Of a stretch of DNA of 60,000 nucleotides, positions 1,010 through 52,320 are shown in pieces. Made by a program: the position numbers and the translations under genes. The DNA is from Botryllus schlosseri (lineage: Eukaryota). Every line of letters starts with the position of its first letter. Within the stretch, counting starts at the first letter, position 1. The stretch is from assembly GCA_051294905.1 (NCBI GenBank), contig CM119371.1, forward strand, positions 27,468,001-27,528,000, given 5' to 3'. Under the pieces are notes generated by a model. That model was not told the origin of the DNA, searched no databases, and saw only the letters and a list, made by a program, of their open reading frames with translations.

Positions 1010-1766
1010 GTGAAAATGAGTGTTCCAACTTTGTATGTAGCTTCTCACGAGGACCTGTAAATCTACCTTCTTCAACTAGTAGACCGAGTAATTTTCTTGC
1101 CTTCTTGTAGTGTAGACATAGCTTGAAAATCTCTGGTTTTATACTTAACATGGAATAGACATCTTCAAACTTTTAAACCAACATAGTGATAACTGTCCTC
1201 ATTATTGGCCTCGTTCACGCTGCATTTACTGAATCAAACTATGCACTTACCAGCTATTCGATTCCTGGAATCGTCGTCTGTCGTTTGCACACGCGACGGC
1301 AGTTCACGTTGCAGACCCGCGGGAAAGAATTTCAGAGGCGGCTGAACTGCAACCTTCTTCCGGCCTGGATTGAGATTGTTTTCAGTGTTCGCACGGTAAT
1401 GCACGGATTCAAATTATACGAGGACATGGGGGAAATTAGCAAATCAGAACAGTAGTTTTTTCGGCCTCTTGATTCTACAGAAGACATGCGCAACTGACCG
1501 CACGGAGATTGCCCGCCAATGACGAAATCTACTTCTGAAACTATTCGATTTACTGCTACCACAGAAGTAGGATTTGTTGATTCTATTCGAGTTGAAAACG
1601 CTAACTACTTCGATCATCTTTTCCATAACCACGCCATCTCGCCCGGTCAAAATATATTTAAAATGAATCAACACGCGAGTCTGGACACTGGACAGCTTTA
1701 GTGCGGCAGATGGAAGGACTATTTTTTGCGAGTGAGACGATAAACAAGCGCACATGTTACCGATAA
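1010..1766 (-). pseudogene. Decayed exon with RRM-like repeats (death-fold/RRM family paralog)
   Basis: Acceptor ctaacttaacag| then (V)IGNMCACLSSHS..RVLIHFK, aligning with (V)ITIHGRLSSTV at 25704. After a frameshift it reads NPCITVRTLKT..LQFSRL..A*FDSVNAA..IKPEIFKLCLHYKK. Stops and a frameshift are present. Confidence 0.5.
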
Positions 1767-1801
1767 CTGTTAAGTTAGAGTTCGAATTATTGAGCACCGA
1801 C

Positions 1802-1945
1802 CGTGGTTATTATGAGGAGCTAGCTCCTCTTTTGTCAGCGTCTCGTATCCGGGACAGCGTTCAAGGGGTGTCGCGCGCTCCCGTTCCGAAGTAGACCGGT
1901 GACTTGTCGGACTGGATTCGCAAGCCAGAACTTTATCGCGGGACC
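1802..1945 (-). pseudogene. Phase 1-1 linker exon (GSRDKVLACESSPTSHRSTSERERATPLERCPGYETLTKEELAPHNNH)
   Basis: tcttcag| acceptor, 144 nt open, candidate |gtcggt donor, then 35 nt to the next acceptor. Confidence 0.4.
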
Positions 1946-1987
1946 CTGAAGATAACCAGATGCGGTTAATGCAGACAGGCTCGATAC

Positions 1988-2913
1988 CAGTGTTGGGATG
2001 ACTCGAGTCATGACTTCACTCGAGTCAGACTCGAGTCACCTTTTTCGAATGACTTGACTTGACTCGAGTCACTTTGCTACAATGACTTGACTTGACTTGA
2101 CTCGGCGTATCAGAAATATGGATTGACTCGCGACTCCGAGCAAAATTCACGAGTCAATTTCGAGTCATCTAATAATCGGTGTCGATAAAGATCACTGAAT
2201 CTTGCATATGTTCGGATTGTTCGCGAAACGCTGGTGTAGCCGTGAGCGCGACCAATCATTTGATGATCGTGCGTTTTACTGAGCCTCCATTGTTTCCTCA
2301 CAAATCAACTGACAGCAAACGAAGTGATCGAAGCTTACAGCTTACGTTGTCGTAAACTAGTATAGTAAAGTATTTAATCTGTTTTTTTTACCTTAACCAA
2401 ACCTCTTGTTTTATTGAAATTGAATTCGAATATAGTTTATATAGTCCTCAACCATTGGCACAGGCTCGGATTGTATCATATCGATTTGTAAATGGGTAAT
2501 GTATTGCATCATATCAATTCATATCTATCCTCTATTTAGGCTGGTAACTATAAACTGTGGTCTAGCGGTTCTACGTATCTGTGAGCGATACAGCGTCTTC
2601 TTGCGTGAATATTAAACTCTATATTCGTTCATCGGTTCAAAATCAATGACCTCTCAATCTGTTTTTCAGACAGCTTTTAAAATGCAATGACGTTATCATG
2701 CCTCGTGCTTCGAAAAGGCAACTGGACTTGAATTGTTACTTGACTCGTGACTTGACTTGACTTGACTCGACTTGACTCGAGCCACCTCCAAAAATCGAGT
2801 GACTTGACTCGAGTCACTTTTGAAAATCGATTGACTTGACTTGACTCGAGTCAAAATGGGCAATGACTTGAAATGACTCGTGACTCGAAGGTAGTGACTT
2901 GATCCCAACTCTG
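1988..2913. mobile_element. hAT MITE with GACTCGAGTC/GACTT subterminal repeats
   Basis: TIRs CAGTGTTGGGAT / ATCCCAACTCTG. Perfect 8-bp TSD ctcgatac at 1980-1987 and 2914-2921. Confidence 0.92.
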
Positions 2914-3988: not shown

Positions 3989-4978
3989 CAGGGGCGGGCA
4001 ACATACGGCCCGCGACGGGATTTTGTCCGGCCCGCGGACGGTTTCCCGTCTAACATGATAATGTGGCCCGCGGCCCAGTCTGCCGAGATTCCTCAGTACT
4101 TGCTTAAACGTGAAATTGTAGTGACTGTGTGTTATTTTATACGTGTGTGCTCACTGCGCAACGTGCGAGAGTATAGCTTACGCGTAAGTTCGGCATTTAT
4201 CATGTACTAAACCCTAAAGAATTGATATATTGGTAAATCTGGGGCATCGAGCTTATCGAACTCCTTGAAATCTTAGTTAAGGATTGCACCATAGTGTCAT
4301 ATATGCTGTGGACACAAGCATATCTCACGGCACAGTGAAATTGGTCGACGTCAGCCTTTCCATTTGGCTAAAGGCAATTTGGCAGCGATAACGTAACTAT
4401 GCCATCTGAGCAGCTCAGGAGCAAGTGCGCACGAGAGTGAGAGTGTGAATGCTCAATCCGTTGCGCAACAACGGCCAATACCCTTGAGGTTTGCACTGCT
4501 CTCACTTGCTCCCAGATGGTATCGTCGCGCCACAATACCAAACTCCGTTACAATGCAACATTCGAGGCTGATTTTGAGGAGTTCCAGGACCGCGAGCCGA
4601 ATACAATTTATATTTTCGCAATCCGTACCTCGGTAGCTTTCGATTGATACCCGTTTTGTTAAATTTCTCGTTCGGCAAGCTGGTCAAGATAGGACAATTT
4701 GATTGCACCGTGTGTGAATCGATCAGAGAGAAGCAGACAAGGCGGCGTCGGCATGACAATTCTGTTCTCAAATCTGCAATCTGCATTGTCTTCGTCATTA
4801 TCGGCGAGAAATGGCTTTGAAGTGACACTGCTGTCGTCAAAAGACATTCATTAAATACGATTTATTGCTTGTATATGTGGATAAATGGGCGTAGAATGTA
4901 TCGATTCAGCAATCCGGCCCGCCAAGTACCTAATTTTCCTATATCCGGCCCGCCGACTGGAGAAGTTGCCCGCCCCTG
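3989..4978. mobile_element. hAT (Buster/Charlie-like) MITE
   Basis: TIRs CAGGGGCGGGCAAC / GTTGCCCGCCCCTG, GGCCCGC subterminal motifs, perfect TSD gactatac. Confidence 0.93.
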
Positions 4979-5163
4979 GACTATACCTTCACCACCACTC
5001 TTGTGTAAAATATATCATAAGACGCTTTGAAATATTACTGTTTGATGAAGCATTATTCTTGCTTACAGCACTATTACATAAACAGTATCCAGACCTTTAT
5101 GCTCAGTCTCAATCCTGGGTACGTTGGGAAAAGAATAGATCTTCGTATTCAGTTGAAACTCAC

Positions 5164-5353
5164 ATGCTAAATCTCGTGGTGCGTCGTGGTCAGCGCCTTT
5201 CGGATCAATAGCTTCCCGGGATTTCATACGCCGCAGTTCGTATTCAGCTACCAGGTTCATGTGAACCCGAGTCATTTCGCGAATATCGGTATCTGAAATA
5301 TATGACTTTAAATCGATTAAATGAATCAGAAACGCAGATATCTCAATCGCCAT
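5164..5353 (-). pseudogene. Truncated death effector domain (DED)-like exon
   Basis: MAIEISAFLIHLIDLKSYISDTDIREMTRVHMNLVAEYELRRMKSREAI aligns without gaps to the N-terminal half of the FADD-type DED pattern. It ends in phase-1 donor |gtgagt, followed by a 49-nt intron to cccag. Confidence 0.55.
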
Positions 5354-5844
5354 GTAGTCATATATGTTGCCCGTTGAGAGATCGCGCTATTGCGTCATGG
5401 AAGATAGTTCTATTTTCATCGGCTCCTTCCCTGTGTTTGGATGCGAAGTGATCATAAACTTGACCAAGTCGTGTCACTATAGCTCGCCATGCTATCCCGG
5501 AGAGTCGAGCATCTAACAAGAAGCAGTGAATACAAATTTACAAGCGAGTGCTTGTATCCATCCCGTTAGCTTATACCAATGCGGTCAGTAAGGAATGAAT
5601 TCAATATTTTCAGGACACTAGGCCTAGACAGTAGATTGTGCTAACTAGCAGCACCTATTCTGGTGAATATGTTTTAGTCTACTCCCATTTTTATATGATT
5701 TTGTCTAATCCAAACACTTCGTACATTCAAGATTCAGTAAAGTGGAAAGCAGTTTTGCGACAAGTTTGCATAGCAACTTCTGCAATTTCGCGAGTAGATC
5801 GCTCCCTCGACTCTATGCTACCCAAACACTGTGTACATGTACAG

Positions 5845-7405
5845 CAGGGGTGGGCAATTATTTTCATCCGCCGTCCAAATGAGAAGCAGAAAATATGTTG
5901 GCGGGTCGAGAAATTTTAGCTGTATTCTCCAGCGTATTGATTTTATTTTTTAATTGAAAGCTTTGCCCTCAGACCAGACCCATCAGGATGCATGTTTTCA
6001 CCACTAATCCTGAGCGAGATTTCTTATGTACACTAATTGGCAACGTTGTACGGCCTAATCGCGCGAAGCGCGGAATTTTTCCATGTTTCATGGTTCAATC
6101 GGTCGATAATATTGGTAATTGCATACATATAGCTATATTTTTCAAATCTCTTTCAGCCCTCGTACTAAGTTTTACCGCTAGAGCAGAGTGAGGTGCTGTC
6201 ATGGAAATAATATTCGAGAGTGGTTCTTGGTATAATTACTTTGACGTTGCATGTTAGTATTTCGTGACCTCCCGTCTGCTATGTGAAAAGATATTGAAAT
6301 CACCAAAGCGTACCAAACTAAAAGACCCACACGATTCCCAATGGATATTTCCTTACTGGAAAATATTGCCTATGGACAATTGGACATCGTGGTTTTTGAT
6401 CAACATGGGAGCAGTCCTTTTGGGCCAAGGCTTTCTCGCTGTCGAGCTTTTATTTAGTTAATTTGATCAACAGTTGAAATTGGACTGCCTTCTCAGAATC
6501 CCGTCTTGGCCTAAACTTCATATATCTTGGTACGTCGTGGCGCGGTAATGACTGACGCCAAAATACAAATTCTATAAGCATTGATCTCGAAATCGAGCCC
6601 AATACCGCAAGAAAAATTTGAAAGAAGTTGCATAAATTTTTAAAAAATACTCTATAATTTATGGTCATTCACTAAATAATTTTGGGCGTCCAAGCTCGCC
6701 CACCGAGCTCGGGTTTGGGGTGCGGCAGTTACGGTCTTGGGAGGTCTTGGGAATGCTTTAAAGCTTATTGTCTTGGTAACTAGTTTCCGAGAAGTGTGCA
6801 GCTTGCCGAAATGGCCTTGTTATTAATCCAAGCTTGCAGTTATTCCGAAATTGGCCGTCCCTTGATCTAGTGTTGGACCTATGTATTCGTGTTTTTGTCA
6901 TGGAACCGACTTGAATAATACTCTTTGAACACTGCGACCTGCTTGGCATTAACTACTTAAAAAGACTGGTAGTAAATATTTAGTCCTCCGAACCATCTTT
7001 GAATTTCAACTTTGGTCTTTCTTTTTCGACATCCGTTATGGGTGGTGATATACTCAAGAGAAATCACGGGCAGTGAACGACTTGTTAAGGGAACACAGAC
7101 CGTGCAATTCGTAATGTGACAATGGCAACAAAGAAGGTTTGATGACTTGTTGTGACTTTAATTGTAACGGCATAATTTGCTACATTAACTTTACTTTTGA
7201 ATCTCGATCGGGCACGTGAGGTACGTATAGGCTGCGTAATCGCGGCATGTTAATGAACAGGCTTGATAGTAAACGAATTTCCGATTCAGTTTATACATCC
7301 TATGGTTTTAGTCCACGCAAAAACATTAAAAAGTATCTTCAATTTCAAGCAATCTTTCGCGGGCCGCACAGAATAGCTCCGCGGGACGCATTTGGCCCAG
7401 GCCTG
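5845..7405. mobile_element. Degenerate hAT element with truncated right end
   Basis: Left TIR CAGGGGTGGGCAA. Right subterminal motifs gcgggccgcac...gcgggacgcatttggccc at ~7357-7400. No right TIR or TSD. Confidence 0.6.
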
Positions 7406-7808: not shown

Positions 7809-8020
7809 CTATTTTGAAGCTACAGCTAAAACAGATGTGAACCTCCTCTTCATGACAGACAGATGAAGAGGACAGGCATACGGGTAGTTAGATTTTCCAT
7901 GTCCTAACGATAAAGAGAGAAACGAAATATGAAATGCACAAAGAATTTGTTCTAGTTCGGCTACGTGGGAACGACAGGTGTCTGATTTGTCAAAGCTGGA
8001 AATGGTCTATCATCACTTAC

Positions 8021-8128
8021 CGAGCTTTCTGCACGCTGATCTTAGATTTTGAAAAGTCTTGTCATGACAGGTAACGGGTAACGCAGGAAGCTTTCTCCTC
8101 CGTCCTGAACCGAGACTGCTATTATCAA
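8021..8128 (-). pseudogene. Phase 1-1 exon (DNSSLGSGRRRKLPALPVTCHDKTFQNLRSACRKL)
   Basis: ttttcag| acceptor and |gtaagt donor, 108 nt. The copy at 14594-14701 is open in the same frame but its acceptor is mutated to GG. Confidence 0.45.
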
Positions 8129-8417
8129 CTGAAAATGTTAAATCCCATCTGCCCGATAACCAGACTCTACTACATATTTGGCGCCGTAACAAGCGTTTTT
8201 AACCATCCCATATCAAGAATGTGGAACCAATATTCAGAAATTCATTCGCGGCATGAAGGAAGCCCAGCAGAGGCTCCGTCATATAACAATAAAACAAGAC
8301 ATAGACGCAATTAGTGATTAAGATGTGACTTTTCATCAGGTAAACTTGAATGTAAATTTCCAGAAAAAGTTACTAAATTTCAAATGTGCCGTCTTGTCCC
8401 TTACGATTGATCTAATC

Positions 8418-9712
8418 CAGTGGTTCCCAACCTTTTTCCTCCTGCGTACCATTTCGAGGTTTTATGCAGTGCTCGTGTACCACCTAGCGAAATTACGCGC
8501 GCCGAAGGCGTTCAAAAACGTTTCCACCGGATTGAGCTGCCGAAGGCAGCGAAACAGAAAATAAACTGCCGATTTAAGGTGCAGTATATGATTTCTGTAG
8601 TGGATCCATTTGGAATTCTTGTGTTCAATTACATTAAAACGGAATTTGGTTAGGTAAGAATCCCAATGTTTTGCGACTAGATCTCTTCCCCGTAGGCCAG
8701 GGGTGGCCAACCTTTTTGCCATTCGCGGCCGCATTTCAACTATACTCATACAGCCCACGGCCGCATTCCAGGGCATAGTCGTAATTAGCTATTGGCGGAC
8801 GCCAAATGCCTACGTTAGAGTGTCTATGTCCATTTCTTATGAATTCCGGACTGATCTACATAATCATATAGACTTGTTATACGCACCGAAATCGCGAGTG
8901 GTCACGTGGTCACCTGGTCACTGGTGATGTTATGGGACGGCAGGCGTCGCTGCGCCAAGCGCGAAATTTTTTTCAGATTTACTATTGAATTTCGTGATTA
9001 ATATTATTAGCCTTACATATTACTATCAAACATTTAACCTTTCTCAGCCCATGGATGTGGTCAGATTCACCGGTAGAGTTGATGGAGGGGGTGTTTTCGA
9101 AAATTTAGGGCAAGTTATAAATGATGATGCATCTTCGGGTGGGCCAATTGTTATTAGCACTTTGCTGCATGCTGTTATTCCTTGACCTCCCATCGGGATT
9201 GTTGGTATAGTGAGGTGTACACGATTCCGAGTTGGTATTTCTATACGGAGCACATCATTTTTCTCTACTCTTCGAATCTGAAATGTGGGGCTCTAATTCC
9301 GAAGAGCCCTCTACTATATTAAAATCGAAAAATAAAGACACATTGAATCGCGCGCAGCGTGAAGAAAATTTCAAGATTAATTAAAATCTATCAAGAAATC
9401 GGGAGTCAATTCGTAAATTCAAATTGCATGTCGACGGCCGCCAACACATGCTAATTAAATTACGTGTCCAAAGCCGCACAAATTACCTTCTATGGCCGCA
9501 TGTGGCCGCAGAGCTGTATCCACTCCTGCCGTAGGCCGTCATTGGTGAGATTGTCCCTACGCACGACGATGACGGCTTAAAAAAACTTAAAGTCAACCCC
9601 ACCTGGACTAATACCACCCTTCGGTCGAAACAAAACAGCATCTACTCGCGTACCACCTGGAAGACCTTCGCGTACCACTAGTGGTACGCGTACCACAGGT
9701 TGGGAACCACGG
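8418..9712. mobile_element. hAT MITE (CAGTGGTTCCCAAC family) hosting a nested MITE
   Basis: TIRs CAGTGGTTCCCAACCT / AGGTTGGGAACCACGG, perfect TSD atctaatc, absent from duplicate unit 2. Confidence 0.92.
8698..9528. mobile_element. Nested hAT MITE
   Basis: CAGGGGTGG ... CCACTCCTG termini, perfect TSD ccgtaggc. Confidence 0.88.
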
Positions 9713-10119
9713 ATCTAATCAGATTCATCGTCTACATTAAAAGTCACGTGGAATTTTATTGCTAATATATAATGAGGCTGGAACAATTGAACTTAGTTGT
9801 GATAATTCTACTTATAATGCGACACGTATGACAACAAATAAAACACATTGTCATGGTTGGACTTAAAACGAGAAAAATCATTGCAAATAACAATCAGGTA
9901 TAACTTACTATTACGTGACGTTTAAAATTATAACTTTACTTATACGAGAGGGATACACTGTTGACACAAATGATGAATTTAATGCGCGACCTTCTTGTGA
10001 CAAATGACTGCTTTTGTTGACATAGACTGAAATGACGAATCGCGAACATGCAAGTCTCTCAACTCGAGAACAGAAAAATGAAACAAATTGAGACCCTCTG
10101 ACCAGTTGAGAGAACTTAC

Positions 10120-10990
10120 CTCTATGGATAGTTGGTACAAGGCAATTTAAATTGCTATTTTGACATGATGACGATGCCATTTGTGGGATTTTACCAAAAA
10201 CATCTGGCTTTGCATTAACGCCAACTACAACGGGATTTTAAATATCTAGCATTAGTAAATATGCCCAAGTCACCAAAACGTATGTGACAAGAGCTTTTAC
10301 ACCTACATGATTCATCATATTTGTTCCATGCTATCTTTATAGGATCAAGCTGAGGTTATCATTTACGGAATCCTTTTAATCTTTGGCATTACTCGAAGTA
10401 GGTGACGCCTATTACTTAACTGGTTACGTTGTTAGGACATGTCCACTGCTACCGCAACCTTCCACTTGCTTTTTTGATTCAAAACAGGTATAAAGTAGAT
10501 TAGGGGTATCGTTACATCGTCTTGCCAACTGGGCAACTTAACCCACGGCAACTGATTTTACTTTCGAAAATTACAGATATCTAGGTAATGTCGGTCATCA
10601 TTTTACGCCGATGGCGAAGACGCACATTGTGGTTTCCAAAGCCGTCACGTGAAATTACGTACTAGAATTATGCGAGTCCTCGACAATATCTACATCAAAT
10701 TACTAGCTTGAGCAATTTCCAGACATTCGTGTTTTAACCTGTCGGTTAAAGTAGTTTCGACATGTCTTAAAAGTCGCTCCCTCTCTCAAAACTTGAGTAT
10801 AATATATTAATATACCGACATCACTTCTACATTTACTGGAGTGGAAGCGTTCAGTAGTTTAACCCCCTCTGACAGTGAGATAGGCGCGGGATCGATTACT
10901 TTGTTCAGATATACATGTCGATGACTTAGATTATGTGCCTATTGTACCTTTCATTTAACTTTATAAGCATAGCAAAGTGCCAAGGATGGC
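10120..10990 (-). pseudogene. Decayed RRM-like coding remnant (unit 1)
   Basis: One frame reads CVFAIGVK**PTLPRYL*FSKVKSV..NLLYTCFESKKQVEGCGSSGHVL, an RRM-like beta1/alpha1/beta3/alpha2 pattern with several stops. Confidence 0.45.
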
Positions 10991-11001
10991 TATGTAAAGA
11001 G

Positions 11002-12143
11002 TAGTGGCACCCCCTTTCAAAAATTGCCCGAGTCTGGCGCCCCCCTCTATTTTAAGGACTCTAGTAAAAACAATGGGCAAGTGGTCGAAGTCCACTTTCG
11101 GGTTGGGGCTTTACTATTATACCACTCGACTAATTAACGGTATAATTGTATGTGCTATTCTCGGGATCAAATCCAGGTTGTTATAACAACCATCGGGTAA
11201 CGCCTACGGGCTCATGCATTTGGTTCGAGATTGATATACAAATCCCGAATTCCACTCTGCGATTGGCAATACGGGGAGGTTAATTGTATTCGGTTTTGTT
11301 TTATTGCTTTGTGTGACTACTAAATCTACTGAGAATGTGGTAGAGATTTGCTCACATTAAATTTAGTCCTGCACCAAGCTCTCAACTCCAACATGAATGG
11401 GGATATAACAACACTAAGCATTATCATCCTTTATGATACGATGAAGAAATATTCTGACGATTTAATTTTGTAGCTTTCAAATACAAGTATATTTAGTTAA
11501 TTATTTGGGCCAAAAACCTTCGAAACATGTACAAAGGGCATCACTCTCAAAGGTTGTACAGTAGCCTACAGTGCCTTTTCGATTTCGACACGCAGTCCGC
11601 TGAAGGACAAAATACCTAGTTCAAAATATTTTGTGGAAAATAACCCAAGCTATCAGTGTCAGTATCAGTTTATTATTATTTTCATCATTTAAAAACAGCA
11701 CAAAACTGCGATACGATGAAAAGATAGGAAGATGTCGAAACGTCCTGGAGTGGATGCCGTGATGGGAGTGTTATAGCGGGGAATTGGCAATCCAAAAGTA
11801 CGCCAAATTCATTTTACATTAGTTAAAATAAACCCACTGCATTCATGGAAACGTGGTCGCTGATTATTTCGCGATGAGCGCATCGAAAAACGTTAAGATT
11901 TGGCAGATTTTTTCGAATGTTAGTTTACCATGCGAACTCCGGGATATGTACAGCTGTTATTCTACTATGATAATCCTATGTCCTTATACACCATCTACTG
12001 CGAGGCCATTTTTCATCACCCCCCCCCATTACCGCTCCTCTAAGCCAAGCGCCCCCCATGTCGCCCCCTGAGCGTTTTCCCCCCATCAAATACCAAATCG
12101 GCCCCCGGGGGGAGGGTGCCGGAGACAAGGTTAAGAACAACTG
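11002..12143. mobile_element. Old hAT MITE with damaged left end
   Basis: Insertion relative to unit 2 (empty site gtctagag at ~16162). Right TIR GGTTAAGAACAACTG, GCCCCCC subterminal motifs, degenerate TSD. Confidence 0.75.
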
Positions 12144-13072
12144 GGCTAGTGTTTTGAATTATAGATCACTGACCGTAGTTACTGTCGAACAAGTTCTGCT
12201 CTTCTTCGGACGGCGTCACGTTCCAAGAATAGCTGGATTGCGATACTGTGCTATCACCACGTTCCCGGGTAGAAGGTAGAGATGACATTTTAATCCATAC
12301 TTCCTCGCCATTGCCTTAATGTAACAACATTCTTCAGGATGATATACGCGTCTACTTCAAACGCATCCTCGGGACTGCTAATGGCGTTGCATAGAGGCGC
12401 AACTTCCGAGCATATATAGCGGTTACGGTGGCGCAGGAGCTGCATCCACCGGCTAATATGATAGTTAGAAGTACCGTGATCCATTTGAACACATTTACTT
12501 GATAAATTCTGCAATATAAAAAGTTATTCACTTGGTAAACTTCAGGAGAATTTGTAGGATCTGTATAATGCATTTGTGACAATTAGATGGAACACGATGG
12601 TGTTAAAAAATATATTCCACGATGAAAATTGATTACACTCATACAATATAAGGTCATTGAAGGGTTCACAGTAGAGCAGAAATACATATGTTACGATTAA
12701 GAAGATTAACTAGATTAGAAGATTACAAATTAACATGTGAGTGCTTGTATCTAGCCCGCTAACTTACCAATGCGGTCGGTAAGGAATGAATTCTACATTT
12801 TCAGGATATCACAGTAGGTTGTGCTAACTAGTAGCACTTACTCTGGTGGTTATACTTTAGTCTACATCCAATTTTTATTTGCATTTTTGCCTAATCCAAA
12901 GACTTTCTGCATAAAGATTTAGTGAAGTGGATAGCAGTTTTGCATAGCAAGTTTGCATAGCATCTTTTAATAGTTGACATTCAGTGTTCATTACTCGCAA
13001 ATGTGCATCTTGCTACTTGCTATTTCACGAGTGAATCACTCCCTCAACTCCTAACACTATGCGACCCAAACA

Positions 13073-13384
13073 CTATACAGTATGTGACGCATCGACATAA
13101 TCTTCATTTTGAAACGAAATACTTTTCATAACTCTCAGTAGCGATTTACACGTTAGTAGCATCTCGACATCGATTGGAAAGAGCAAATACAACAGGTCTT
13201 TGACTTTATATCCATAGCAATACCCCTGCTCTAGCTTTAGTAGCAACGCCAAGGCTGTAATGACTCGAATCGTGTCTTGAAATCTTGGTGGATGTGTCTT
13301 GATTCCAGTCATTTTCTTAAACATGGAAGCTGATCGGACCAGACTTGAAGAAATGAGGAAATACAGTGCTTCTTTGGGAAACAA
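13073..13384 (-). pseudogene. DED-like open reading frame or exon
   Basis: LYFLISSSLVRS..ITALALLLKLEQGY..KVKDLLYLLFPIDVEMLL matches the DED helix pattern (TALDL..LE..G....L..LL..I...LL). No internal stop. Confidence 0.5.
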
Positions 13385-13524
13385 AAAGGGATGTGAAGTT
13401 TTATTACAAGCATTTGATCATACAAAGTCAACTTTCAAGCACCTCAACGAACTCAAAAAATAAATTTAACGCGTAATAACTCAGCTATGTTTCGATATTG
13501 CATAAATATGGATCGCGGCGACAA

Positions 13525-13809
13525 TCAGGTTCGTAAAGTGGCCCTTCGCCCATTTTGAGTTGGTGACGCCTGATGACTATGCAACTCAGTAAACGTGACT
13601 AGTTTAGCACGTCTTTTCCGCAACTTATCCAACCATCTAACCTTGGAAATAGCGAAAAACTCCAACTCACCCTCACATGACACTTCCCGTGAAACGTGCA
13701 CTGGAGTGAACGCCAAATTATCTCCTGGACACCAGTCAGCACCAGCCAAGCGGGCCCCAACGCACTCTGTAAGATATTTGAAAGAGTTTTGTAGTGTTGA
13801 AGCGGACAC
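13525..13809 (-). pseudogene. Death-fold (death domain-like) remnant
   Basis: SFKYLTECVGARLAGADW..NLAFTPV..KLRKRRAKLVTFTELHS, similar to the 52018-52320 translation. Confidence 0.4.
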
Positions 13810-15329
13810 TATATCTTCTACTATGGTGGTTTTTAACTAGTGATCCTTGTCAACTTCTGACTGGCTGCCAAATATATATCAATTATAAACCTCTTTTGGG
13901 AAATGCGAGGAACTAAAGACTTGTACATTTAAGACACAAAACGTCAAATTTGCGACTGATGTAAAATTTTAGAACGTAATTTACCGTCCTGTGATATTTA
14001 TTCTCTGCTTTGGCGGCCTCATCTCACGTTATTACTGTAAATGTTGTACAGAACTGTTTAGAATCGACATACAAACAGTATTATGGAGACTGGACAGCTA
14101 CGAAGGCCGTTGTTAATATCAACGCAATTCGACATTTGATTGAATGATACTGAATGATCAAGTATGTCTATGAAACAGAAAAATCATTTCTTCCCAATGA
14201 AAATCTACAATCATTACCAAGTTATTTATTTGATTAAATTTCGCAATGCGGAAACTTCAATATAATTTCATATATTATGTGTGATATAAAATATTATATT
14301 GAAGTTTCTATATACTTTCGAGTTCCATAGTTCTCTCGCTACCGGCGTTGTCGACTTGATTTGATTTCTGACGGTGTATCGATTCACAATCTATGTTGAA
14401 GCTACAGCTAAAACAGATGTGAACCTCTTCTTCATGACAGACACATGAACACGACAGGCATACAGGTAGTGAGATTTTTCATGTCAAAGAGGAAACGAAA
14501 TTTGAAATTCACAAAGTGTTTGTTCTAGTTCTGCGATATGGGAAGGACAGGTGTGTGAATTGTCAACGCCGTAAATAGTCTATTATCACTTACCGAGCTC
14601 TCTGCGCGCTGATCTTTGATTTTCAAGAGTCTCGTCATGGCAGGCAACGGGTAACGCAGGAGGCTTTCTCTTCCGTTCTAAATCAAGATTACTGTTGTCA
14701 ACCGAATAGGCTAAATCACCTCTTCCCGATAACCAGACTCTGCTACCTATTCGGCGGCGTAAAGCCTATTTAAACATCCCATAGCAGGAACGTGGAACTA
14801 ATATCCAGTAATTCGGATTTTGCTCGTGGCACAAAAGAAGCGATTAGTGAATAAGATGTGACTTTTTATCGGGTAAACTTGAATGTAGATATGGAGGTTA
14901 ATGCATTTCAAATCCGCCCTCTTGTCTCGCACACTTAATTCAATCCGACTCAGTCATCATTGGAAGTCAAACCTTTGAATTAGAAGGGAAATGTATTGCC
15001 AGTCTGGAACATCTGAACTTAATTGTGATAATTCTACCTAAAATGCGACACATTTCTCAGTCAGAGATATACATTCTCATCGGTTGACTTAGCGGGAGAA
15101 CAAGAATCATTATAACGAACAATCGGTATCGCTAACTCTTGAGAGACATTCAAAATTATAAATTGAAGAAGACGAGACGTAACACTGTCGACAAAAATGG
15201 GGCAAGGTATTGTGCGACTTTCACGTGATAAATGAATGCTTTTCTTAACGAATCGTAAACATGCGAGTACCTCAACTCGAGAACAGAAAAAGGAAATAAA
15301 TTGAGACGCTTTGCCAAGAAGAATTTACA

Positions 15330-19629: not shown

Positions 19630-19742
19630 TCTGCAGTCTGTGAAAACACACAATACCCTCCGTCCATTTGACGTTTTATTAGGTATGTGCATTGTGCACT
19701 TGAGTAATAATGAATGGCTAATGTTGTGTGATGTTTGTACAG

Positions 19743-37170: not shown

Positions 37171-37208
37171 CTGCTCAGAGTATTCAACGTTTTGACTACT
37201 GTTAAGTA

Positions 37209-39584: not shown

Positions 39585-40016
39585 CAGGGTGGGCAACATA
39601 GCGCCAGAAGGATTTCCTGCGGCCCGCTTATACTTTCCTGTCTTACTTAATGTGGGCCGCGGGTCTACATAGCTCTGCGAGGAAACGTCTACGATCATGT
39701 GCATTAACAAGACAAAGCTGCGTTCCAATCTAACTTATGTTCACGTGCAGTAGTCTTTACTAAGGGTTTCTGTTGGACATGGAGCCATTGTTCAATAAAC
39801 TTGTTGACAATGTCGACCACGGATGTCTCAATAATTCAAAATCTATTGAAGTAAGCTACGTTAATAAATTAATTTAAGACAGTTTTTGGACTCTATCGAT
39901 TAAACTTAAAGTGGAATGCAAATACGATTCATTCTTTGTATACAGGTGGATAAATCCGCGATTAATATATCGATTCATAAAGTACTATCGCGAACTGCAG
40001 AAGTTGCCAGCCCCTA
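39585..40016. mobile_element. Decayed hAT MITE of the 3989-4978 family
   Basis: CAGGGTGGGCAAC / GTTGCCAGCCCCTA, TSD gttcatat/ttttatat. Confidence 0.75.
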
Positions 40017-41256
40017 TTTTATATCTACATGAGGGAAATCCTCACACCACCGGAGAAACATAACCCCTATGACAAGATGACGTAATTAAATCTCGAAATT
40101 TGCACCCGTCTGGAATCAATCAATTCGCGTTATCGGCGAAGATGCCCCCACGGAAGTCCCCACGGAAGTCCCCACGGTCAACTGCTAACGGCATGTTTGC
40201 CCTGGGTCATTTCTACTTTTCAAAATATTTTTGTGAGTACTTTCACTCCAAACTTCTACGATGACAACTAGGACCAGCTCTGAACAAGACTGGCAAGACT
40301 GGTTACAGTGACAGTCGTCGTCAAGGCACATACGCTTCCCGATTCAGGTAGGCCCAGGGTTTTTCGAAGTTTGGTTTGGATGACCGCTGAATAGTGTTAA
40401 GGGACCGCAAGTGTTTCATTTAAATACCAAAATAGCGATATTTGCTTAAAATAATTATTTATTAGGTTACTGGGAGTGCACAATCACAGAACAAATTTTA
40501 CAGGGTCTATCTCACGCAACAAAACAGATTCAAAATCCCGTCCCATCCGTGAGCTTCTGCTTCTTATGTTTCTACATGTTAAAACTGGCCAGTATGCGCC
40601 ATAAATCGGAAATAAACATTGACAAGTATCGAAGGTGCATTTTTTTCTGAATAACTCTTTGATTCAGCTGTTAGCTGTACCTCAACTTATTCTTTTTGCC
40701 GGACGTGAACTATTGATCGTCGGTTATATTCTTATTATTGACAAGACATAGCGAGGCGCAATGATTACTTTTGTACTGTAGTTCAACTCCAAATTTTCAA
40801 AAACCGGTGAAGAATTCTGGGGGATTGAAACCCTAAAACACACTGGCTAGTACTATTTCAAAATATACTCGCTCCACAACTTACTTGCAGCAGCATTTAT
40901 TGCAGTTTCGTCGCGAATCAATTCAAAACTGGAAGGCAAGTATGAGGGCATATCACGCGTAGCTGGCAGCGATCTCGTTCTTGGGGAGTAAGAGATGAAT
41001 TCATCTGTAAAATTAAAATGTATATTTCCGGAATTACTGGTGGGTAGAGGTGGGCATCACGATTAGAGTTGAGCCGAACCCTAATTGAGTGTCGGTTACT
41101 GATGGTTCGATTCGTCCATAGTGAGAGCCGATGTGTTCCAGTACGCTCTTTGTTATTTTATAACGAAAACCAATGTTGCTATGCTGTGTAGCCAGTGCAG
41201 TTGGTTTGAAATCTCAAGGTAGCATATAATTCGATAAATGCAGAACAAGGCTGTAC

Positions 41257-41728
41257 CAGGGTCGTAATGACTCGACTCGAGTCAATCTGTGTATGGACTT
41301 GATCTGAACTCTAGTCATTGCGGATGACTCGGAGCAACTCATATGGCTCGCGTCTCAGGCGGCCAAGACCGGCATTTCGCTGTAACCACCATGTTGCTAT
41401 TTCGCTTATCGGTACTGGTACTCGAAAAGACGACCAGACACTGTTGGAAGCGAGGAAAATTTGTATATTTTGAATGCGAAACATCGATTACACCCAACAC
41501 AGTTGGAAAATATGATTTCAACAAGACTTCAAGTCGAAACTGAGCAGTGACCACAATGACTTGGACTCGGACTCAAGTCATAACACCAAGACTCGGACTA
41601 GACATTTTGCTCGGTGACTTGGACTTGAATCGATGCTGAATTGAAAATGACTCGACTCGACTCCGGTCAAAACTATAAAATTGAGATTTACTTGTTACTC
41701 TGAGCGTTATGATTTGGTTACAACCATG
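41257..41728 (+). mobile_element. GACTCGAGTC-family hAT MITE (unit 1 copy)
   Basis: CAGGGTCGTAA / TTACAACCATG, at the same site in all three units. Confidence 0.88.
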
Positions 41729-43593
41729 GGCTAACTATCCACCACCACGGCAGCGACATCTCAGTCAAACAGTTACCGACCTACAGTATTATCTCAAATC
41801 GACTTGACATACTCTCTAATTTGACATCATTTGTATGCACACTGTCTGTAACTGGCATTATTGATCTCGATGCCGCGTTAAAAGTACGTCCCTGGACAGG
41901 ACACCTTACTCTTATGAAGTGATAACGAGTGGTACTATAGACTATAGTTGGTCAACTTCGGAATAGAATCAGTCGATACCACGATTTGGGACCCACAGCT
42001 ATGTATAGCTTATGGGAGCTTCCCCCCAACCCCTCTCACATAGATTATTTCCAATCTTATATCAGTGGGCCATATGCAACGGAATTACGTGATGTGTATA
42101 TGACACTAACTCGGCTTTGAAGCAGGCTTAAATGCAAAATCTGTTGAAGTAAGCTATACAGTAGGTTATTAAATTAATTTAACACGGTTTTTGGACTCTA
42201 TCCTTTAAACTTAAAGTGGAATGGAAATACGATTCATTCATTGTATAGGTGGATAAATCCGCGATTAATATATCGATTCATGAAGTACAATCGCGAACTG
42301 GAGAAGTTGCCAGCCCCTATTTTATATCCACATGTTGAGTGAAATCATCACACCACCGGGGAAACATAACCCCTATGACAAGATGACGTAATTAAATCTC
42401 CAAATTTGCATCCGTTTGGAATCAATCAATTCGCGGTATCGGCGAAGATACTCCCTATCGTTTCAAAGGAAGTCCCCCTCGGTTAGCTGCTAACGGTACG
42501 CTTGCCCCGGGTCATTGCTACTTTTGAAAATATTTTTGTAAGTACTTTCACTAAAAAATTCTATTAGAGAATCAACGATGACAACTCGGACCAGCTCTGA
42601 ACAAGAGTGGCAAGACTGGTTACAGTGACAGTCGTCGTCAAGGCACATACGATATCCGATTCAGGTAGGCCGAGGGTTTTTTAAGGTTTGGTTTGGATGA
42701 CCGCTAAATAGTGTTAAGGGACCGCAAGTGTTTCATTTAAATACCGAAATAGCGATATTTGCTCAAAAGAATTATTTATTAGGTTACTGGAAGTGCACAA
42801 TCACAGAACAAATTTTCCAGGGTCTATCTCACGCGACAAAACAGGTTCAAAATCCCGTCCCATCCGCCAGCTTCTGCTTTTTATATTTCTACACATTAAA
42901 ACTGGTCATTATGCGCCATAAATCGGAAATAAACATCGACAAGTATCGAAGGTGCATTTTATTCTGAATAACTCTTTGATTCAGCTTTTAGCTGTACCTC
43001 CACCTATTCTTTTTGCCGGACGTGAACTATTGCTCGTCGGCTATATTCTTATTGTCGACAAGACATAGCGAGGCGCAATGATTACTTTTGTACTGTAGTT
43101 CATGATTACTTTTGTACTGTAGTTCAACTCCAAATTTTTAAAAACCGCTGAAGAATTCTGGGGGATTGAAACCCTAAAACACACTGGCTAGGCCTATCTC
43201 AAAATATACTCGCTTCACAACTTACTTGCAGCAGAATCTATTGCAGTTTCGTCGCCAATCAATTCAAAATTGGAACGCAAGTATGGGGGCATATCACGCG
43301 TAGGTGGCAGCGATCTCGTTCTTGGGGAGTAAGAGATGAATTCATCTGTAAAATTAAAATGTATATTTCCGGAATTACTGGTGGGTAGAGGTGGGCATCA
43401 CGATTAGAGTTGAGCCGAACCCTAATGGAGAGTCGATTTCTGATGGTTTGATTCGTCCATAGTGAGACCCAGTAGGTACGCTCTTTGTATTTTATAATGA
43501 AAACCAATGTTGATAGGCTGTGTAGCCAGTGCAGTTAGTTTGAAATCTCAATAAGATAGCATATAACTCGATAAATGCAGAACAAGGCTGTAC

Positions 43594-44049
43594 CAGGGTC
43601 GTAATGACTCGACTCGAGTCAATCTGTGTATGGACTAGACTTGATGACTTTGAACAACTCATATAGCCCGCGTCTCAGACCGTCAAGACCGGCATTTCGC
43701 TGTAACCACCATGTTGGTATTTCGCCTATCGGTACTGGTACTCGAAAAGACGACCAGACACTGTTGGAAGCGAGGAAAATTTGTATATTTTAAATGCGAA
43801 CCATTCGATTACACCCAACACAGTTAGAAAATACGATTTCAACAAGACTTCATGTCGAAACTGAGCAGTGACCACAATGACTTGGACTCGAACTCAAGCC
43901 ATAACACCAAGACTCGGACTCGACATTTTGCTCGGTGACTTGGACTTGAATCGATGCTGAATTGAAAATGACTCGACTCGACTCCAGTCAAAACTATAAA
44001 ATTGAGATTTACTTGTTACTCTGAGCGTTATGACTTGGTTACAACCCTG
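43594..44049 (+). mobile_element. GACTCGAGTC-family hAT MITE (unit 2 copy)
   Basis: TIRs as in unit 1, TSD ggctgtac/ggctatat. Confidence 0.88.
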
Positions 44050-44248
44050 GGCTATATCCACCACCACGGCAGCTACATCTCGGTAAAACAGTTAACGACC
44101 TACATTATTATCTCAAATCGCAATGACATACTCTCTAATTTGATATCATTTGTATGCGCACTGTCTGTAACGGGCATTATTGATCTCGATGCCGCATTAA
44201 AAGTGCGTTCCTGGACACCCTACTCTTATGAAGTAATAACGAGTGGTA

Positions 44249-47452: not shown

Positions 47453-48379
47453 TACTAGACTATAGTTGACTAACTTCGGAATAAAATCAGTCGATAACAC
47501 CATTTGGGGCCCTACAGGTATGTAATAGCTTATGGGGCCTTCCCCCACCCCCTCTCACATCTATTATTTCCAATTTAATATCAGTGGGCCATATGCAACG
47601 GAATTACGTGATGCGTTAAGGACACTAACACGGCTTTGAAGCAGGCTTAAATGCAAAATCTATTGAAGTAAGCTATACAGTACGTTAATAAATTAATTTA
47701 ACACCGTTTATGGACTCTATCCTTTAAAACTTAAAGTGGAATGTAAATACGATTCATTCTTTGTATAGGTCGATAAATCCGCGATTAATACATTGATTCA
47801 TGAAGTACTATCGAGAATTGGAGAAGTTGCCAGACCCTATTTTATATCCACAGGATGAGTGAAATCATCACACCACCGGGGAAACATAACCCCTATGACA
47901 AGATGACGGAATTAAATCTCCAAATTATTACCCGTCTGGAATCAATCAATTCGCGTTATCGGCGAAGATGCCCCCTATCGTTTCAAAGGAAGTCCCCACG
48001 GTCAACTGCTAACGGTATGTTTTTCCCGGGTCATTGCTACTTTACAAAATATTTTTGTTAGTACTTTCACTCAAAAATTCTACTAGAGAATCAACGATGA
48101 CAACTCGAACCAGCTCTGAACAAGACTGGCAAGACTTGTTAAAGTGACAGTCGTTGTCAAGGCACATATGCTACCCGATTCAGGTAGACCCAGGGTTTTT
48201 TAAGGTTTGGTTTGGATGACCGCTGAATAGTGTTAGTGTTTCATTTAAATACCAAAATAGCCATATTTGCTGAAACAAATTATTTATTAGGTTACTGGGA
48301 GTGCACAATCACAGAACAAATTTTCCAGGGTCTATATCTCACGCAACAAAACATATTCAAAATCCCGTCCCATCCGCCA

Positions 48380-49750
48380 GCTTCTGCTTCTTATGTTTCT
48401 ACACGTTAAAACTGGTCAGTATGCACCATAAATCGGAAATAAATATGGACAAGTATTGAAGGTGCATTTTTTTCTGAATAACTCTTTGATTCAGCTGTTA
48501 GCTGTACCTCCACTTTTTCTTTTTTCCGGATGTGAACTATTGATCGTTGGCGATATTCTTATTACCGATTAGACATAGCGAGACACAATAATTACTTTTG
48601 TACTGCATTTCAAGTCCACATTTTCGAAAACCGCGGAAGAATTCTGGGGGATTGAAACCTTAAAACACACTGGCTAGGCCTATCTCAAAATATACTCGCA
48701 TCACAACTTACTTGCAGCAGCATTTATTGCAGTTTCGTCACCAATCAATTCAAAACAAGGAGGTAAGTATGGGAGCATATCACGCGTAGGTGGCAGCGAT
48801 CTTGTTCTTGGGCGGTAATAGATGAATTCATCTGTACAATTAAAATGTATATTTCCGGAATCATTGGTGGGTAGAGGTGGGCATCACGATTAGAGTTGAG
48901 TCGAACCCTAATGGAGTGTCGATTTCTGATGTTTCTATTCGTCCATAGTGAGAGCCGATGTGTTCCAGTACGCTCTTTATTATTTTATAACGTAAACCAA
49001 TGTTGCTATGCTGTGTAGCCAGTGCAGTTGGTTTGAATCTCAATAAGGTAGCATATAATTCGATAAATGCAGAACAAGGCTGTACCAGGGTCGTAATGAC
49101 TCGACTCGAGTCAATCTGTGTATGGACTAGACTTGGACTCGAGTCATTGCCGATGACTCGGAACAACTCATATGATGGCTCGCGTCTCAGGCGGTCAAGA
49201 CCGACATTTCACTGTAACCGCCATGTTGGTATTTCGCCCATCGGTACTGGTACTCGAAAAGGCGACCAGACACTGTTGGATACGAGAAAAATTAGTATAT
49301 TTTAAATGAGAACCATTCGATTACACCCAACACAGTTAGAAAATATGATTTTAACAAGACTTCAAGAGTTGAAACTGAGCAGTGACCACAATGACTGGGA
49401 CTCGGACTTAAGTCATAATACCAAGACTCGGACTCGACCTTTTACTCGGTGACTTGGACTTGGATCGATGCTGAATTGAAAATGACTCGACTCGACTCCA
49501 GTGAAAACTATAAAAGTGAGTTTTACTTGTTACTCTGAGCGTTATGACTTGGTTACAACCCTGGGCTATATCCATCACCACAGCGACATCTCGGTCAGAC
49601 AGTTACCGACCTACAGTATTATCTCAAATCGCAATGACATACTCTATAATTTGACATCATTTGTATGCAGACCGTCTGTAACTGGCATTGTTGACCTCGA
49701 TGCCGCGTTAAAAGTACCTCCCTGTACAGGACACCTTACTCTTATGAAGT
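48380..49750 (-). pseudogene. RRM-like remnant inside the triplicated unit (also in units 1 and 2), interrupted by the GACTC MITE
   Basis: RS(I/T)MPVTD..TNDVKLESMSLRFEIIL.. continues past the MITE into PCSAFIEL; later NAPSILV..AEAGG. Many stops. Confidence 0.35.
49086..49563 (+). mobile_element. GACTCGAGTC-family hAT MITE (unit 3 copy)
   Basis: TIRs and TSD as in unit 2. Confidence 0.88.
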
Positions 49751-51312
49751 GATAACGAGTGGTACTACTAGACCATAATTGACTAACTTCGGAATAGAAT
49801 CAGTCGATACCACGATTGGGGGCCCTATAGGTATGTAATAGCTTATGGGGGCTTCCCCCACCCCCTCTCACATCTATTATTTCCAATTTAATAGCAGTGG
49901 GCCATATGCAATGGAATTACGTGATGTGTATATATGACACTAACACGGCTTTGAAGCATGCTTTAATGTTGATTTTTTTAGCTCCTGAGCCTTCTCTTAT
50001 CCTACATTATCAAATTATTAAAGAAGTTACCTAGTTATCTATAGCTCATGTTCTCATATGGCATGCAGCATGAAAAAATAATATAGCGATACAACTACTG
50101 CATGCTAAATAGACCACATTAGTTGGAAACGCTATATCGGCTCATATTAGTAACACATTAGTAACAAACCAGTACACCACGTCAAGGTTTGAACCGAAGC
50201 GCTGGATTGAGCCATATCTATTATTGCATGATTGCAAAGATAGAACACATCAAAATCAAGTAGGCCTACCTCTAACGTATGCACTGCAGTGACTTGATGA
50301 TATGAGGACATATAAACATGAAATTTTCTACAACTAAACTTTGATCGCTGGTGAATTGACTAAAAAAGTCATTGTTTCGGCATGGCTTCCAAAAGATCTG
50401 TCTCCACGTATAATCGGTGGAAGTTTGCCCTTTTTAGTCAGCTTTTGAGGCAGATCCAGAACAATCTGTTTAACGTGCCGATTAGTTATATATAAATCTG
50501 GTAAATGGTAACATCCCTTCATCCCCTTCGTACACTTTTTCGCCTATTGCACCCCCCATCCTTCATTATGTTTGCCATCCAGTTTCTCAAAATCGTTGTG
50601 AACCACTGTGCTATGTTATATCTCGTGTATGATGTGCAACGATGTCATATCTTAGCACAGGGGTGCGCAAACCTTTCTACAATGGGGACAGATATATCAC
50701 AAATGCCATGAAACTACGGCTTTCTGTATAGTTGGTGGAGGGTCCACTAGACATTCTAGTAGTCGAAACCCTACAATCGCATTGGAAATGGCGATGGCGA
50801 AACTCAATTCATTCGAATGCGATATCGGAATCGCCAAAGCAATAGCAAATACCGGGTAGCGCGAAAATAATTCCAAGTCATCGAATATATTTTAGCAAAA
50901 GGTTCATGTGGAAATTCGCCATATGTTAATTCGTGTGAAGTTAGTGCCGTATGGGCTCGTAACATAACCAATCTAGCTACATGAGAAACCCATAGCCGCA
51001 GACTCTTTGCCATTGGGACTTCTTGCGAAAGTTTGAACGTTTTCAACGGGTGACGACATCTGACACATATCCACCGTATACATAACCGCGTCAACGGCTA
51101 CCATCATAGCAAACTGAAACGTGCGGTACACGCAATATAAGCTTGATATACCTCATGAAAGTTGATATCACAACGGATTATTGATGATAACGGGTCTTCC
51201 GCCGCGGAAAAACCCGCAGTGAATGACATAAAATATTGCTCTGTGCATACATATACATGGATATTGAGAAAGGGACAGGGATATTCGCTTCAAATAGAAT
51301 ACGTGTACTTAC

Positions 51313-51655
51313 CTGACGAGTAAGTATCGTCAGACATTGGATATTCTGCCATGGCGTCGTCAATGCCCCCACAAATTCTCACGAAAGCACGCAGTACGTT
51401 AAATAAAATAAGTTAATGCCTCTTTCAGCAAAAGAATAACCGTCAACTCTCAACTCCGTGACATCTCACATAGTTCAGGGGACATAAAAACATCGATAGA
51501 GAGTTGGTCTGTGAGTTCGACAGTCGATAACTTCCTTCGTCAGTTATACAAATGTTTGTGTATACCTGATGTCTGTCTAGTGTCTAGTTGTGATCCTTCC
51601 ATGGAATTGTCCTCACTCAACTAACGATAATTTAGAAATTTTCCCTCTGTCACGA
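51313..51655 (-). pseudogene. Decayed full-length DED-like exon
   Basis: DTRQTSGIHKHLY (compare DIREMTRVHMNLV at 5.3 kb)..RRKLSTVE..IDVF..LLKEALTYFI*R. Ends in |gtaagt, with a ~72-nt intron to cacag at 51241. Confidence 0.45.
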
Positions 51656-52017
51656 AGGTAAACTAAGCCTCATTTATGTAGCAACATATTAGTATCAAGC
51701 CACCTGCATAGAATAACAACGCACGTTGAGGTGCACCGATCGGCTTGTCTGGACAAAACGGCAGGCACACGATCAGTGATGCTATAAACGGAAAATAATA
51801 ATTAGCCAATGCCGTCTGCGAGTGATGACACAGCTACACGGTATTTAACACCTTTAGCGATCGTGAATGAACGGGGCATTAGGTCAAGGAATGGACGAAG
51901 GTATAAGATACGAAGTCAGATCCTGTCAACCGCAGTCTTGTGTGAGCAAGAGGGTCATGCACTGTTAATACGTGGGCGGGAGACAGGGTGATTTACCAAA
52001 TCTCCACCATAGGTAGA

Positions 52018-52320
52018 CTACCAAATGGTACCAACGATTGCTTTCGCATCTACTTCAATATATGAAAACGAGTAAAATAAACCAAATCTTGTGGAGATAT
52101 ATCCCAGGGCGTGAAGTCGGCTATACTTATGTCCACTAATTTTTCGCATTTTCATGAGCTGTACCGCGAAAACGGTATCCATTCTACCCCGGAGGCATAT
52201 CTCAATAACAATGGGTGTACCTTACTCTTGTTCACCCACTGGGGTGAGCGTAAAGGCAAGACTGCGTAACACAAAGCAGCGTCTGTCTGATTTGCACTCT
52301 AAGCTATGGCGGAAATCGAC
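52018..52320 (-). pseudogene. Death-fold-like remnant
   Basis: DFRHSLECKSDRR..SLAFTLTPV..KMRKISGHKYSRLHAL, similar to 13525-13809, with one internal stop. Confidence 0.35.

Follow-up and report, generated by a model that had tools for sequence, protein, structure and literature searches.

Two kinds of described system come close to the locus reported here, namely modular metazoan genes, in which symmetrical phase 1-1 exons suit duplication and shuffling, and orphan gene families in tandem or segmental arrays. The locus lies in a stretch of 60,000 nucleotides of the Botryllus schlosseri genome (C1:27468001-27528000, where C1 is contig CM119371.1), hereafter referred to as the window. An earlier reading of this DNA, the original prediction, had described a minus-strand cluster of paralogous genes in which death-fold domains are combined with arrays of RRM-like repeats. 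Our analysis suggests instead that the window probably holds part of an orphan family of repeated exons that is found at one locus, encodes a product likely to be disordered, and is embedded in a transposon-rich segmental-duplication array. Two of the exon types, termed A/B and D, resemble the exons of modular metazoan genes in that acceptor and donor are both in phase 1, in that their length is a multiple of three, and in that they recur 3-8 times.

A self-comparison showed that 41% of the window, which has a GC content of about 40% throughout, has a second copy within the window. We searched the whole assembly (495 Mb in 219 contigs) for further copies and included 130 kb upstream and 30 kb downstream of the window in a comparison of colinearity. 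The segment at 14.4-53.4 kb was colinear with an upstream block at C1:27.353-27.385 Mb (unit I) at 70-93% identity, and partly colinear with a second upstream block at C1:27.432-27.443 Mb (unit II). The segment at 7.4-12.7 kb was a repeat of the one at 14.0-16.8 kb, and the segment at 1.5-5.4 kb matched C1:27.331-27.335 Mb. Apart from the high-copy transposons, the segments of the window had further copies nearby on C1 alone. Since the copies are confined to this neighbourhood and are colinear with the upstream blocks, the window is, judging by its sequence, one unit of a locus-specific segmental-duplication array of about 200 kb (C1:27.33-27.53 Mb) that extends past C1:27.331 Mb and has been heavily invaded by transposons. 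The recurring modules of the original prediction thus exist. Its picture of 5-7 mostly dead gene copies does not hold: a large block, in which exons are repeated internally, is present three times, with the window as one of the copies, and those exons that are well supported have open frames.

Four candidate exon types (D, L, A/B and Y) with 3-8 paralogous copies each were identified within the array, along with a weaker candidate (E1). The copies located in the window are as follows, with a slash marking the exon boundary where it falls within a motif.

5093-5293, minus strand: D exon, with three genomic copies, all on C1, and a conserved acceptor (tcag) and AG/GT donor.
8019-8189, minus strand: second copy of the L exon, with an open frame and a conserved GTAAGT end.
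10121-10237, minus strand: second copy of E1, a weaker candidate within the supposed RRM-like segment at 10.9-10.1 kb.
14592-14762, minus strand: L exon, open in three copies, with a conserved GTAAGT donor.
15332-15445, minus strand: E1, a weaker exon candidate of 38 codons that are open in three copies, within the supposed RRM-like segment at 16.4-15.3 kb.
25789-26058, minus strand: copy A of the A/B exon, with acceptor ttccag and donor gtgagc, and with paralogues only on C1.
29316-29513, minus strand: copy Y of the Y exon, with a conserved GTAAGT donor.
34570-34773, minus strand: copy Y' of the Y exon, with an open frame.
34872-35144, minus strand: copy B of the A/B exon, with acceptor tttctag and donor gtatgt kept in three copies.
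38972-39166, minus strand: copy Y'' of the Y exon, with an aligned GTAAGC donor.

Genome-wide protein searches placed the copies of the Y, A/B and D exons only in C1:27.33-27.51 Mb, and a dispersal test on the Y, A/B, D and E1 segments yielded copies in this same interval only. The search for intact paralogues that the original prediction had called for recovered open-frame copies of Y, A/B and D on C1 only, and none for two of its supposed death-fold modules (13528-13836 and 13076-13417). Seven of the nine sites that it had listed as linker exons (39.3, 35.1, 34.7, 29.5, 26.0, 14.7 and 8.1 kb) were exon-like, with one minus-strand frame open in every paralogue. The linker at 1.9 kb was not confirmed, and its open reading frame (ORF) produced no BLASTP alignment with the L exon at 14.7 kb.

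One indication of coding came from the distribution of stop codons. Taken together, the 20 copies of the four exon types were free of stops over about 1,445 codons of the proposed coding frame, as compared to 2-39 stops per type in each of the other frames. The seven A/B copies, five of which are located upstream of the window and include a tandem pair, accounted for 603 of these codons (other frames: 21, 36, 21, 10 and 27 stops). The Y exon was found at exactly seven places in the genome, three in the window and four upstream, all of them open over a total of 470 codons (other five frames: 14, 39, 22, 19 and 14 stops). Likewise, no stops were found in the 171 codons of the three L copies, the third of which lies upstream of the window (other frames: 7, 19, 20, 5 and 2), nor in the approximately 202 codons of the D exon (other frames: 15, 22, 4, 9 and 6), for which the two upstream copies showed 78% and 51% amino-acid identity to the copy in the window. 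The longest minus-strand runs that were conserved as open, in register, in the block with the A/B and Y exons were 87 and 77 codons, versus 48 codons for the plus strand.

The insertions and deletions also followed the proposed exon boundaries. Those inside copy B were 3 and 9 nucleotides long, and one of a single nucleotide was located just beyond the donor. Copy A contained three of 12 nucleotides, while those outside were of 5, 1 and 7 nucleotides. The Y copy at 29316-29513 had a 3-nucleotide indel inside and 2-nucleotide indels upstream of the acceptor, and an indel of a single nucleotide in the D exon was placed 3' of the proposed AG/GT donor. The A/B acceptor was a conserved, pyrimidine-rich AG, followed at the other end by donors of the sequence GTATGT, GTGAGC or GTAAGC. 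The Y subfamilies were only 65-68% identical in DNA and yet the splice dinucleotides were conserved, except that GC replaced GT at the donor in two of the copies. The E1 donor, GTAAGT, was kept in two copies and lost in the one at 15332-15445.

According to the alignments, both boundaries of the A/B and D exons are in phase 1 and their lengths are divisible by three; the L and Y donors likewise fall in phase 1. About 317 bp of unit I (C1:27366043-27366360), containing an intact A/B-type exon, is absent from the window at 29732-29773 (about 29.75 kb), and this same exon is tandemly duplicated in unit I. We suggest that D, L, A/B and Y code for protein, or did so until recently, as parts of a single gene or a small gene family of restricted taxonomic range, which would have grown by tandem duplication both of single exons and of whole segments. 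Copies of the A/B and D exons could have been gained, lost or skipped without a break in the frame, since these exons are of phase 1-1 and their lengths are multiples of three.

To this we can add estimates of the ratio of nonsynonymous to synonymous substitutions (dN/dS), which were calculated for 17 pairs of copies with one-sided, uncorrected p values. The ratios ranged from 0.14 to 1.31, and five of the 17 pairs were below 0.05 in p value. The lowest ratio was obtained for the Y copies of unit I and unit II (0.14, p = 0.006). Ratios below one were also found in the comparisons of the 34.7-kb copy Y' with the upstream Y copies (0.45-0.48, p = 0.03) and for the A exon (0.49, p = 0.02). Values for the L exon were 0.41-0.54, and one of the 17 pairs, with a ratio of 0.41, had a p value of 0.047. 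The original prediction of a fast-evolving, paralogous family subject to birth and death is partly upheld, in that there are locus-specific minus-strand exons with dN/dS values of 0.14-1.3 and with copies gained and lost; the domain identities given to it are not.

The translated exons are low in complexity and hydrophilic, with Ser, Pro, Thr, Asn, Asp and Arg as abundant residues. When the A/B exon was modelled with AlphaFold from a 7-row alignment, the model contained no secondary structure, with a predicted local distance difference test score (pLDDT) of 59 and a predicted template modelling score (pTM) of 0.13. We consider it most likely that the product is modular and intrinsically disordered, and that the constraint on it is weak and uneven. 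From the composition, for example the conserved STEPTTTA in the Y exon, we would guess with low confidence at a linker-like and possibly glycosylated protein. A more far-reaching version, which we regard as possible but doubtful, is that of a functional, lineage-restricted family at this one locus. The product of such a family would be a long, modular, disordered and possibly glycosylated protein, and its number of exons would vary as frame-neutral exons are duplicated and lost. The locus would be fast-evolving, in the manner of one that serves self/non-self recognition or variation of the immune surface in this animal, and expressed only in a restricted cell type or condition beyond those sampled.

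Several observations speak against a coding gene family at this locus. Homology searches among longer proteins gave no match for the B exon (none of 217 candidates reached E <= 0.01) or for the Y alignment (8000 scored). In the ESM Atlas, the first hits of the B and D ORFs were at 0.88 and offered no lead; the recognition scores, 2016 and 1822, fell short of the 2300 mark. The phase-1 donor of copy B fits no acceptor of the adjacent Y exon in the conserved frame, and no start, end or exon chain was found that would yield a full gene model. The exon copies are not independent of each other, so the stop counts overstate the significance. The plus strand is nearly open at 25882-26096, and one reverse frame of the L exon has only 2 stops. 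Finally, dN/dS values close to one were obtained for the Y copies at 39.1 kb and 29.4 kb when compared with unit I (1.02 and 0.90, respectively) and for the window copy of B compared with the upstream copies (0.83-0.86), while the comparison of A with B yielded 1.31.

Expression data point in the same direction. For this analysis, we aligned reads from four bulk RNA sequencing (RNA-seq) runs of the same species, using about 1.1-1.9 billion letters (6-13%) of each, to the first 20,000 positions of the window. No spliced transcript was found in this interval, none of the six listed joints being GT..AG. The read depth was 0-0.03 over the 14.7-kb L exon, 0-0.11 over E1 at 15332-15445 and 0 over E1 at 10121-10237; more broadly, it was 0 in 10006-10672 and 0-0.11 across 12007-16675. 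In bin 8005-8671, which holds the 8.1-kb L exon, the depth rose to 0.91, with variant reads at about 8476, and in bin 4670-5336, which holds the D exon, it rose to 1.87, with variant reads at 4867-4930. Reads piled up almost only on transposon parts and ran on into unlike sequence, as at 1981-2921, which resembles a miniature inverted-repeat transposable element (MITE) and where reads continued into unlike sequence at 1988 and 2913. Altogether, 550 of 552, 220 of 220, 413 of 416 and 1053 of 1054 RNA reads fitted only in part.

Window-wide tests were not very informative about coding. The smallest p value in a per-ORF codon-position test was 0.0025 in 2254 tests, with the two strands alike, and a sliding-window version gave a best p value of 1.2e-4 among 2147 windows, which is not significant. 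The exons supported by the other analyses did not stand out in tests of substitution periodicity and codon position. There were 122 ORFs of at least 60 amino acids on the minus strand versus 136 on the plus strand, at odds with the original claim that most of the remaining DNA translates on the minus strand. For ORFs of at least 100 amino acids there was a moderate excess, with 24 on the minus and 14 on the plus strand versus 10+-3 and 8+-2.5 in Markov shuffles. ORF-to-ORF similarities that had no match at the DNA level numbered 6, 16 and 72 on the minus strand and 1, 17 and 67 on the plus strand at E < 1e-3, 1e-2 and 0.1, respectively, as compared to 0, 1 and 40 and 0, 2 and 40 in controls with reversed sequences.

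The main alternative, that nothing in the window codes and that neutral low-copy segmental duplicates and old repeat remnants happen to contain open frames, draws on precisely these results: the 17 plus-strand versus 16 minus-strand similarities at E < 0.01, the non-significant codon-position tests, the several dN/dS values near one, the lack of homologues, the RNA depth of about 0 over the 14.7-kb L exon and both E1 exons, and conserved open runs that were alike on either strand in most blocks. We nevertheless find it unlikely. Chance open frames do not readily account for the lack of stops in all 20 exon copies, for A/B and Y exons whose internal insertions and deletions come in multiples of three while those outside do not, for splice dinucleotides kept between copies that are merely 65% identical, or for dN/dS values of 0.14-0.5 in four pairs (p = 0.006-0.03) and 0.41 in a fifth (p = 0.047).

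A second alternative would assign the exons not to a host family but to a mobile or virus-like element of low copy number, which carries them as cargo or has captured them as fragments of genes. The region is dense in transposons, and directly beside an upstream unit there is an element of about 13 kb (C1:27.338-27.352 Mb) with long intact ORFs on the plus strand, which abuts the L exon of unit I. Besides a 1306-aa ORF with a weak match to type-B DNA polymerases, it encodes a chromodomain-bearing rve integrase and a packaging ATPase of the A32 type, and by this gene set it is Polinton/Maverick-like. All exon copies are local, however, and colinear in large duplicated blocks, with none dispersed, and the exons are flanked by introns with canonical splice sites. 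This makes the mobile-element explanation improbable, and a host family of repeated exons the preferred reading.

The transposons and other DNA-level repeats of the window were recorded separately, as listed below.

1981-2921, unstranded: high-copy MITE-like element, found dozens of times, on many chromosomes, at 90-95% identity.
3989-4978, 8762-9678 and 18859-20000, unstranded: further high-copy elements, from the genome search.
5840-7398, unstranded: high-copy repeat, with copies on C16, C11, C8, C7 and C5 at 87-90% identity.
19282-19626, plus strand: remnant of a hAT transposase (Dimer_Tnp_hAT, 35.3 bits, cut-off 21.4).
39833-42134, 42131-44248 and 47650-49968, unstranded: three copies of a 2.3-kb DNA unit at 88-89% identity.
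51492-53441, unstranded: block that is 92-93% identical to two upstream copies and contains the supposed death-fold segment at 52.3-52.0 kb.

Two of the copies of the 2.3-kb unit are adjacent and the third is located 3.4 kb further on, with one more in each upstream block; the conserved open frames were similar on either strand. Each copy harbours a member of a MITE-like family of about 470 bp, which is also present at 20769-20958 and 32445-32940. In the block at 51492-53441, the conserved open runs were 62 and 56 codons on the minus strand versus 59 and 50 on the plus strand, and the Pfam scan assigned it no family.

Two further segments deserve mention. The longest ORFs of the window, a plus-strand one of 173 aa and a minus-strand one of 137 aa, overlap in antisense at 24277-24968, in a GC-richer patch (0.449 for 24001-26000) that has an inverted copy of 80% identity about 56 kb downstream; no Pfam family was assigned to them. 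At 53464-53724 on the plus strand, an 87-aa ORF aligned over 88 aa with a 273-aa ORF of unit I, at 28% identity (E = 4e-7). We take both to be, probably, remnants of one retroelement-type ORF, by a likeness to the C-terminal regions of such ORFs rather than by a family match.

We also examined the domain identities of the original prediction. For this purpose, a Pfam scan was made of every minus-strand ORF, taken from stop to stop, with a length of 44 aa or more (287 in total, at E <= 0.05), and of 148 plus-strand ORFs with a length of 57 aa or more. The profile check that the original prediction had proposed (DED PF01335, Death PF00531 and RRM_1 PF00076) was thereby run on the ORFs of the window and returned no match: neither Death nor DED among the 287 minus-strand ORFs at E <= 0.05, and no RRM_1 in these or in the 148 plus-strand ORFs. 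Only 15 of the 287 had any Pfam match at this level, all of them below the curated cut-offs, with about 14 expected by chance, and the hAT dimerization match listed above was the sole one over its cut-off in the window on either strand. Nor did the 17 exon copies match Death, DED, RRM or any other Pfam family at E <= 0.1.

The genome itself is rich in Death domains, and an exon-by-exon scan yielded 106 matches over the cut-off, none of which was located in C1:27.33-27.56 Mb. Matches to DED numbered 3, on C11 and C12 and none on C1 (4 candidates scored). A Death profile built from 12 distinct domains of the same genome and run unfiltered against 2116 ORFs of at least 20 aa in the window gave a best E value of 1.3, with none of the supposed death-fold or RRM modules among the best 20 matches. 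Many of the 106 matches are near-identical ORFs of about 100 aa in inverted pairs about 10 kb apart on many chromosomes, such as C4:20656892 (plus) and 20667428 (minus), and C5:25440527 (minus) and 25450416 (plus), as if a repeated element bears a Death-domain ORF in each arm.

The six modules read as death-folds were not recognizable as paralogues, the best of the 15 pairs having an E value of 0.006, close to the 0.025 of a plus-strand control. Two of them are unique ORFs:

13528-13836, minus strand: ORF read earlier as a death-fold; no Pfam family, RNA depth 0.
13076-13417, minus strand: ORF read earlier as a death-fold; no Pfam family, RNA depth 0.

Neither has a paralogue anywhere in the genome. 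A HMMER search with the former against 1.84 billion representative sequences produced one match (E = 6.4e-5), which we rejected as spurious because the target is a bacterial protein with 31 Listeria-Bacteroides repeats that was matched many times by a single stretch of 25 residues. A single-sequence AlphaFold model of this ORF consisted, at low confidence (pLDDT 57), of two long helices rather than the six-helix bundle of a death-fold. One of the six modules, at 5.35-5.16 kb, did turn out to be a conserved exon, D, and has a helix-prone sequence, but its identification as a death-fold finds no support in Pfam or in the sequences of PDB entries, against which the best match of a D profile had an E value of 0.79 and no death-fold chain was found.

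The RRM-like repeats fared no better as a family. Among the seven modules, 1 of the 21 pairs was significant (16.4-15.3 versus 10.9-10.1 kb), and the plus strand yielded equally many weak matches. This pair corresponds to a DNA duplicate (15001-16169 and 9775-11001) with 73% identity, so that the RRM-like modules resemble each other only where the DNA is duplicated. The segment at 48.3-49.8 kb, said to contain three RRM copies, has no internal direct repeat and lies inside the 2.3-kb unit. In the three-way comparison of the RRM-like block, the exon candidates were short on either strand, and the segment at 1447-1806 gave no match to proteins of similar length (4 candidates). The scan of the window also returned, on either strand, no macro, PARP catalytic, WWE, NID or NMI-type domains such as accompany the RRM arrays of PARP14, PARP10 and NMI-type proteins.

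The short motifs quoted for distant copies were all found on the minus strand:

15769-15792 and 15730-15744, minus strand: CVFVTGVK and LQFSK, respectively.
1380-1403 and 1338-1352, minus strand: CITVRTLK and LQFSR, respectively.
39239-39259, minus strand: LKLHYRH.
1101-1121, minus strand: LCLHYKK.

They are thus real at these positions, but the segments that bear them include stops and are not significantly alike. At the DNA level, the segments at 1.2-1.8 kb and 15.5-16.2 kb, which hold the distant motif pair at 1.3 and 15.7 kb, had a Smith-Waterman score of 22, no better than the 20.7+-2.3 of shuffled sequences.

Despite the presence of the motifs, the abundance of Death domains in the genome and the conserved, helix-prone D exon, it is thus very improbable that the window contains 5-7 fast-evolving, mostly dead copies of a death-fold and RRM-array gene, possibly of a nucleic-acid sensor family, given that no Death, DED or RRM match was obtained, that the Death and DED matches of the genome are all elsewhere, that the modules are hardly more alike than the controls, and that neither the Atlas nor the models gave a lead. 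The original prediction had itself named a lack of significant death-fold or RRM hits, or of similarity among the distant modules, as what would speak against it, and by what was found here it is largely refuted. It saw a true recurrence and several exon-like modules; the death-fold and RRM labels, the paralogy of the modules and the dead-copy picture are not supported.

If true, an architecture of death-folds and RRMs would have been a striking family of immune sensors; it is absent here and the idea is not worth a follow-up. The small exon family that remains has a clearly conserved frame and offers a useful, testable example of lineage-specific genes that may be built from segmental duplication and from frame-neutral exons in repeated copies. 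There is also a caution about method, in that the reading of motifs from translated, repeat-rich DNA can find true exons and yet misname them.

Compared with known systems, the modules share with death-fold adaptors (Death PF00531 and DED PF01335, as in FADD and the caspase-8 prodomains) a size of about 65-100 aa and, for some of them, a helix-prone sequence, but differ by showing no profile match, no mutual similarity and no six-helix model. With the RRM arrays of PARP14, PARP10 and NMI-type proteins they have only short hydrophobic motifs in common (C[VI]xVx[GT][VL]K); there is no RRM_1, macro, PARP, WWE or NID domain in the window. Modular metazoan genes with phase 1-1 exons are closer, although the pieces in the window match no shuffled domain such as EGF, Ig or sushi, and the acceptor of the Y exon does not fit the 1-1 scheme. 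There is also a likeness to orphan families in tandem or segmental arrays. The window exons differ from these in that they belong to a putative gene, and resemble them in being confined to one locus, in having no homologues in large collections, in dN/dS values from 0.14 to above 1, in being gained and lost among copies, and in the predicted disorder of their product.

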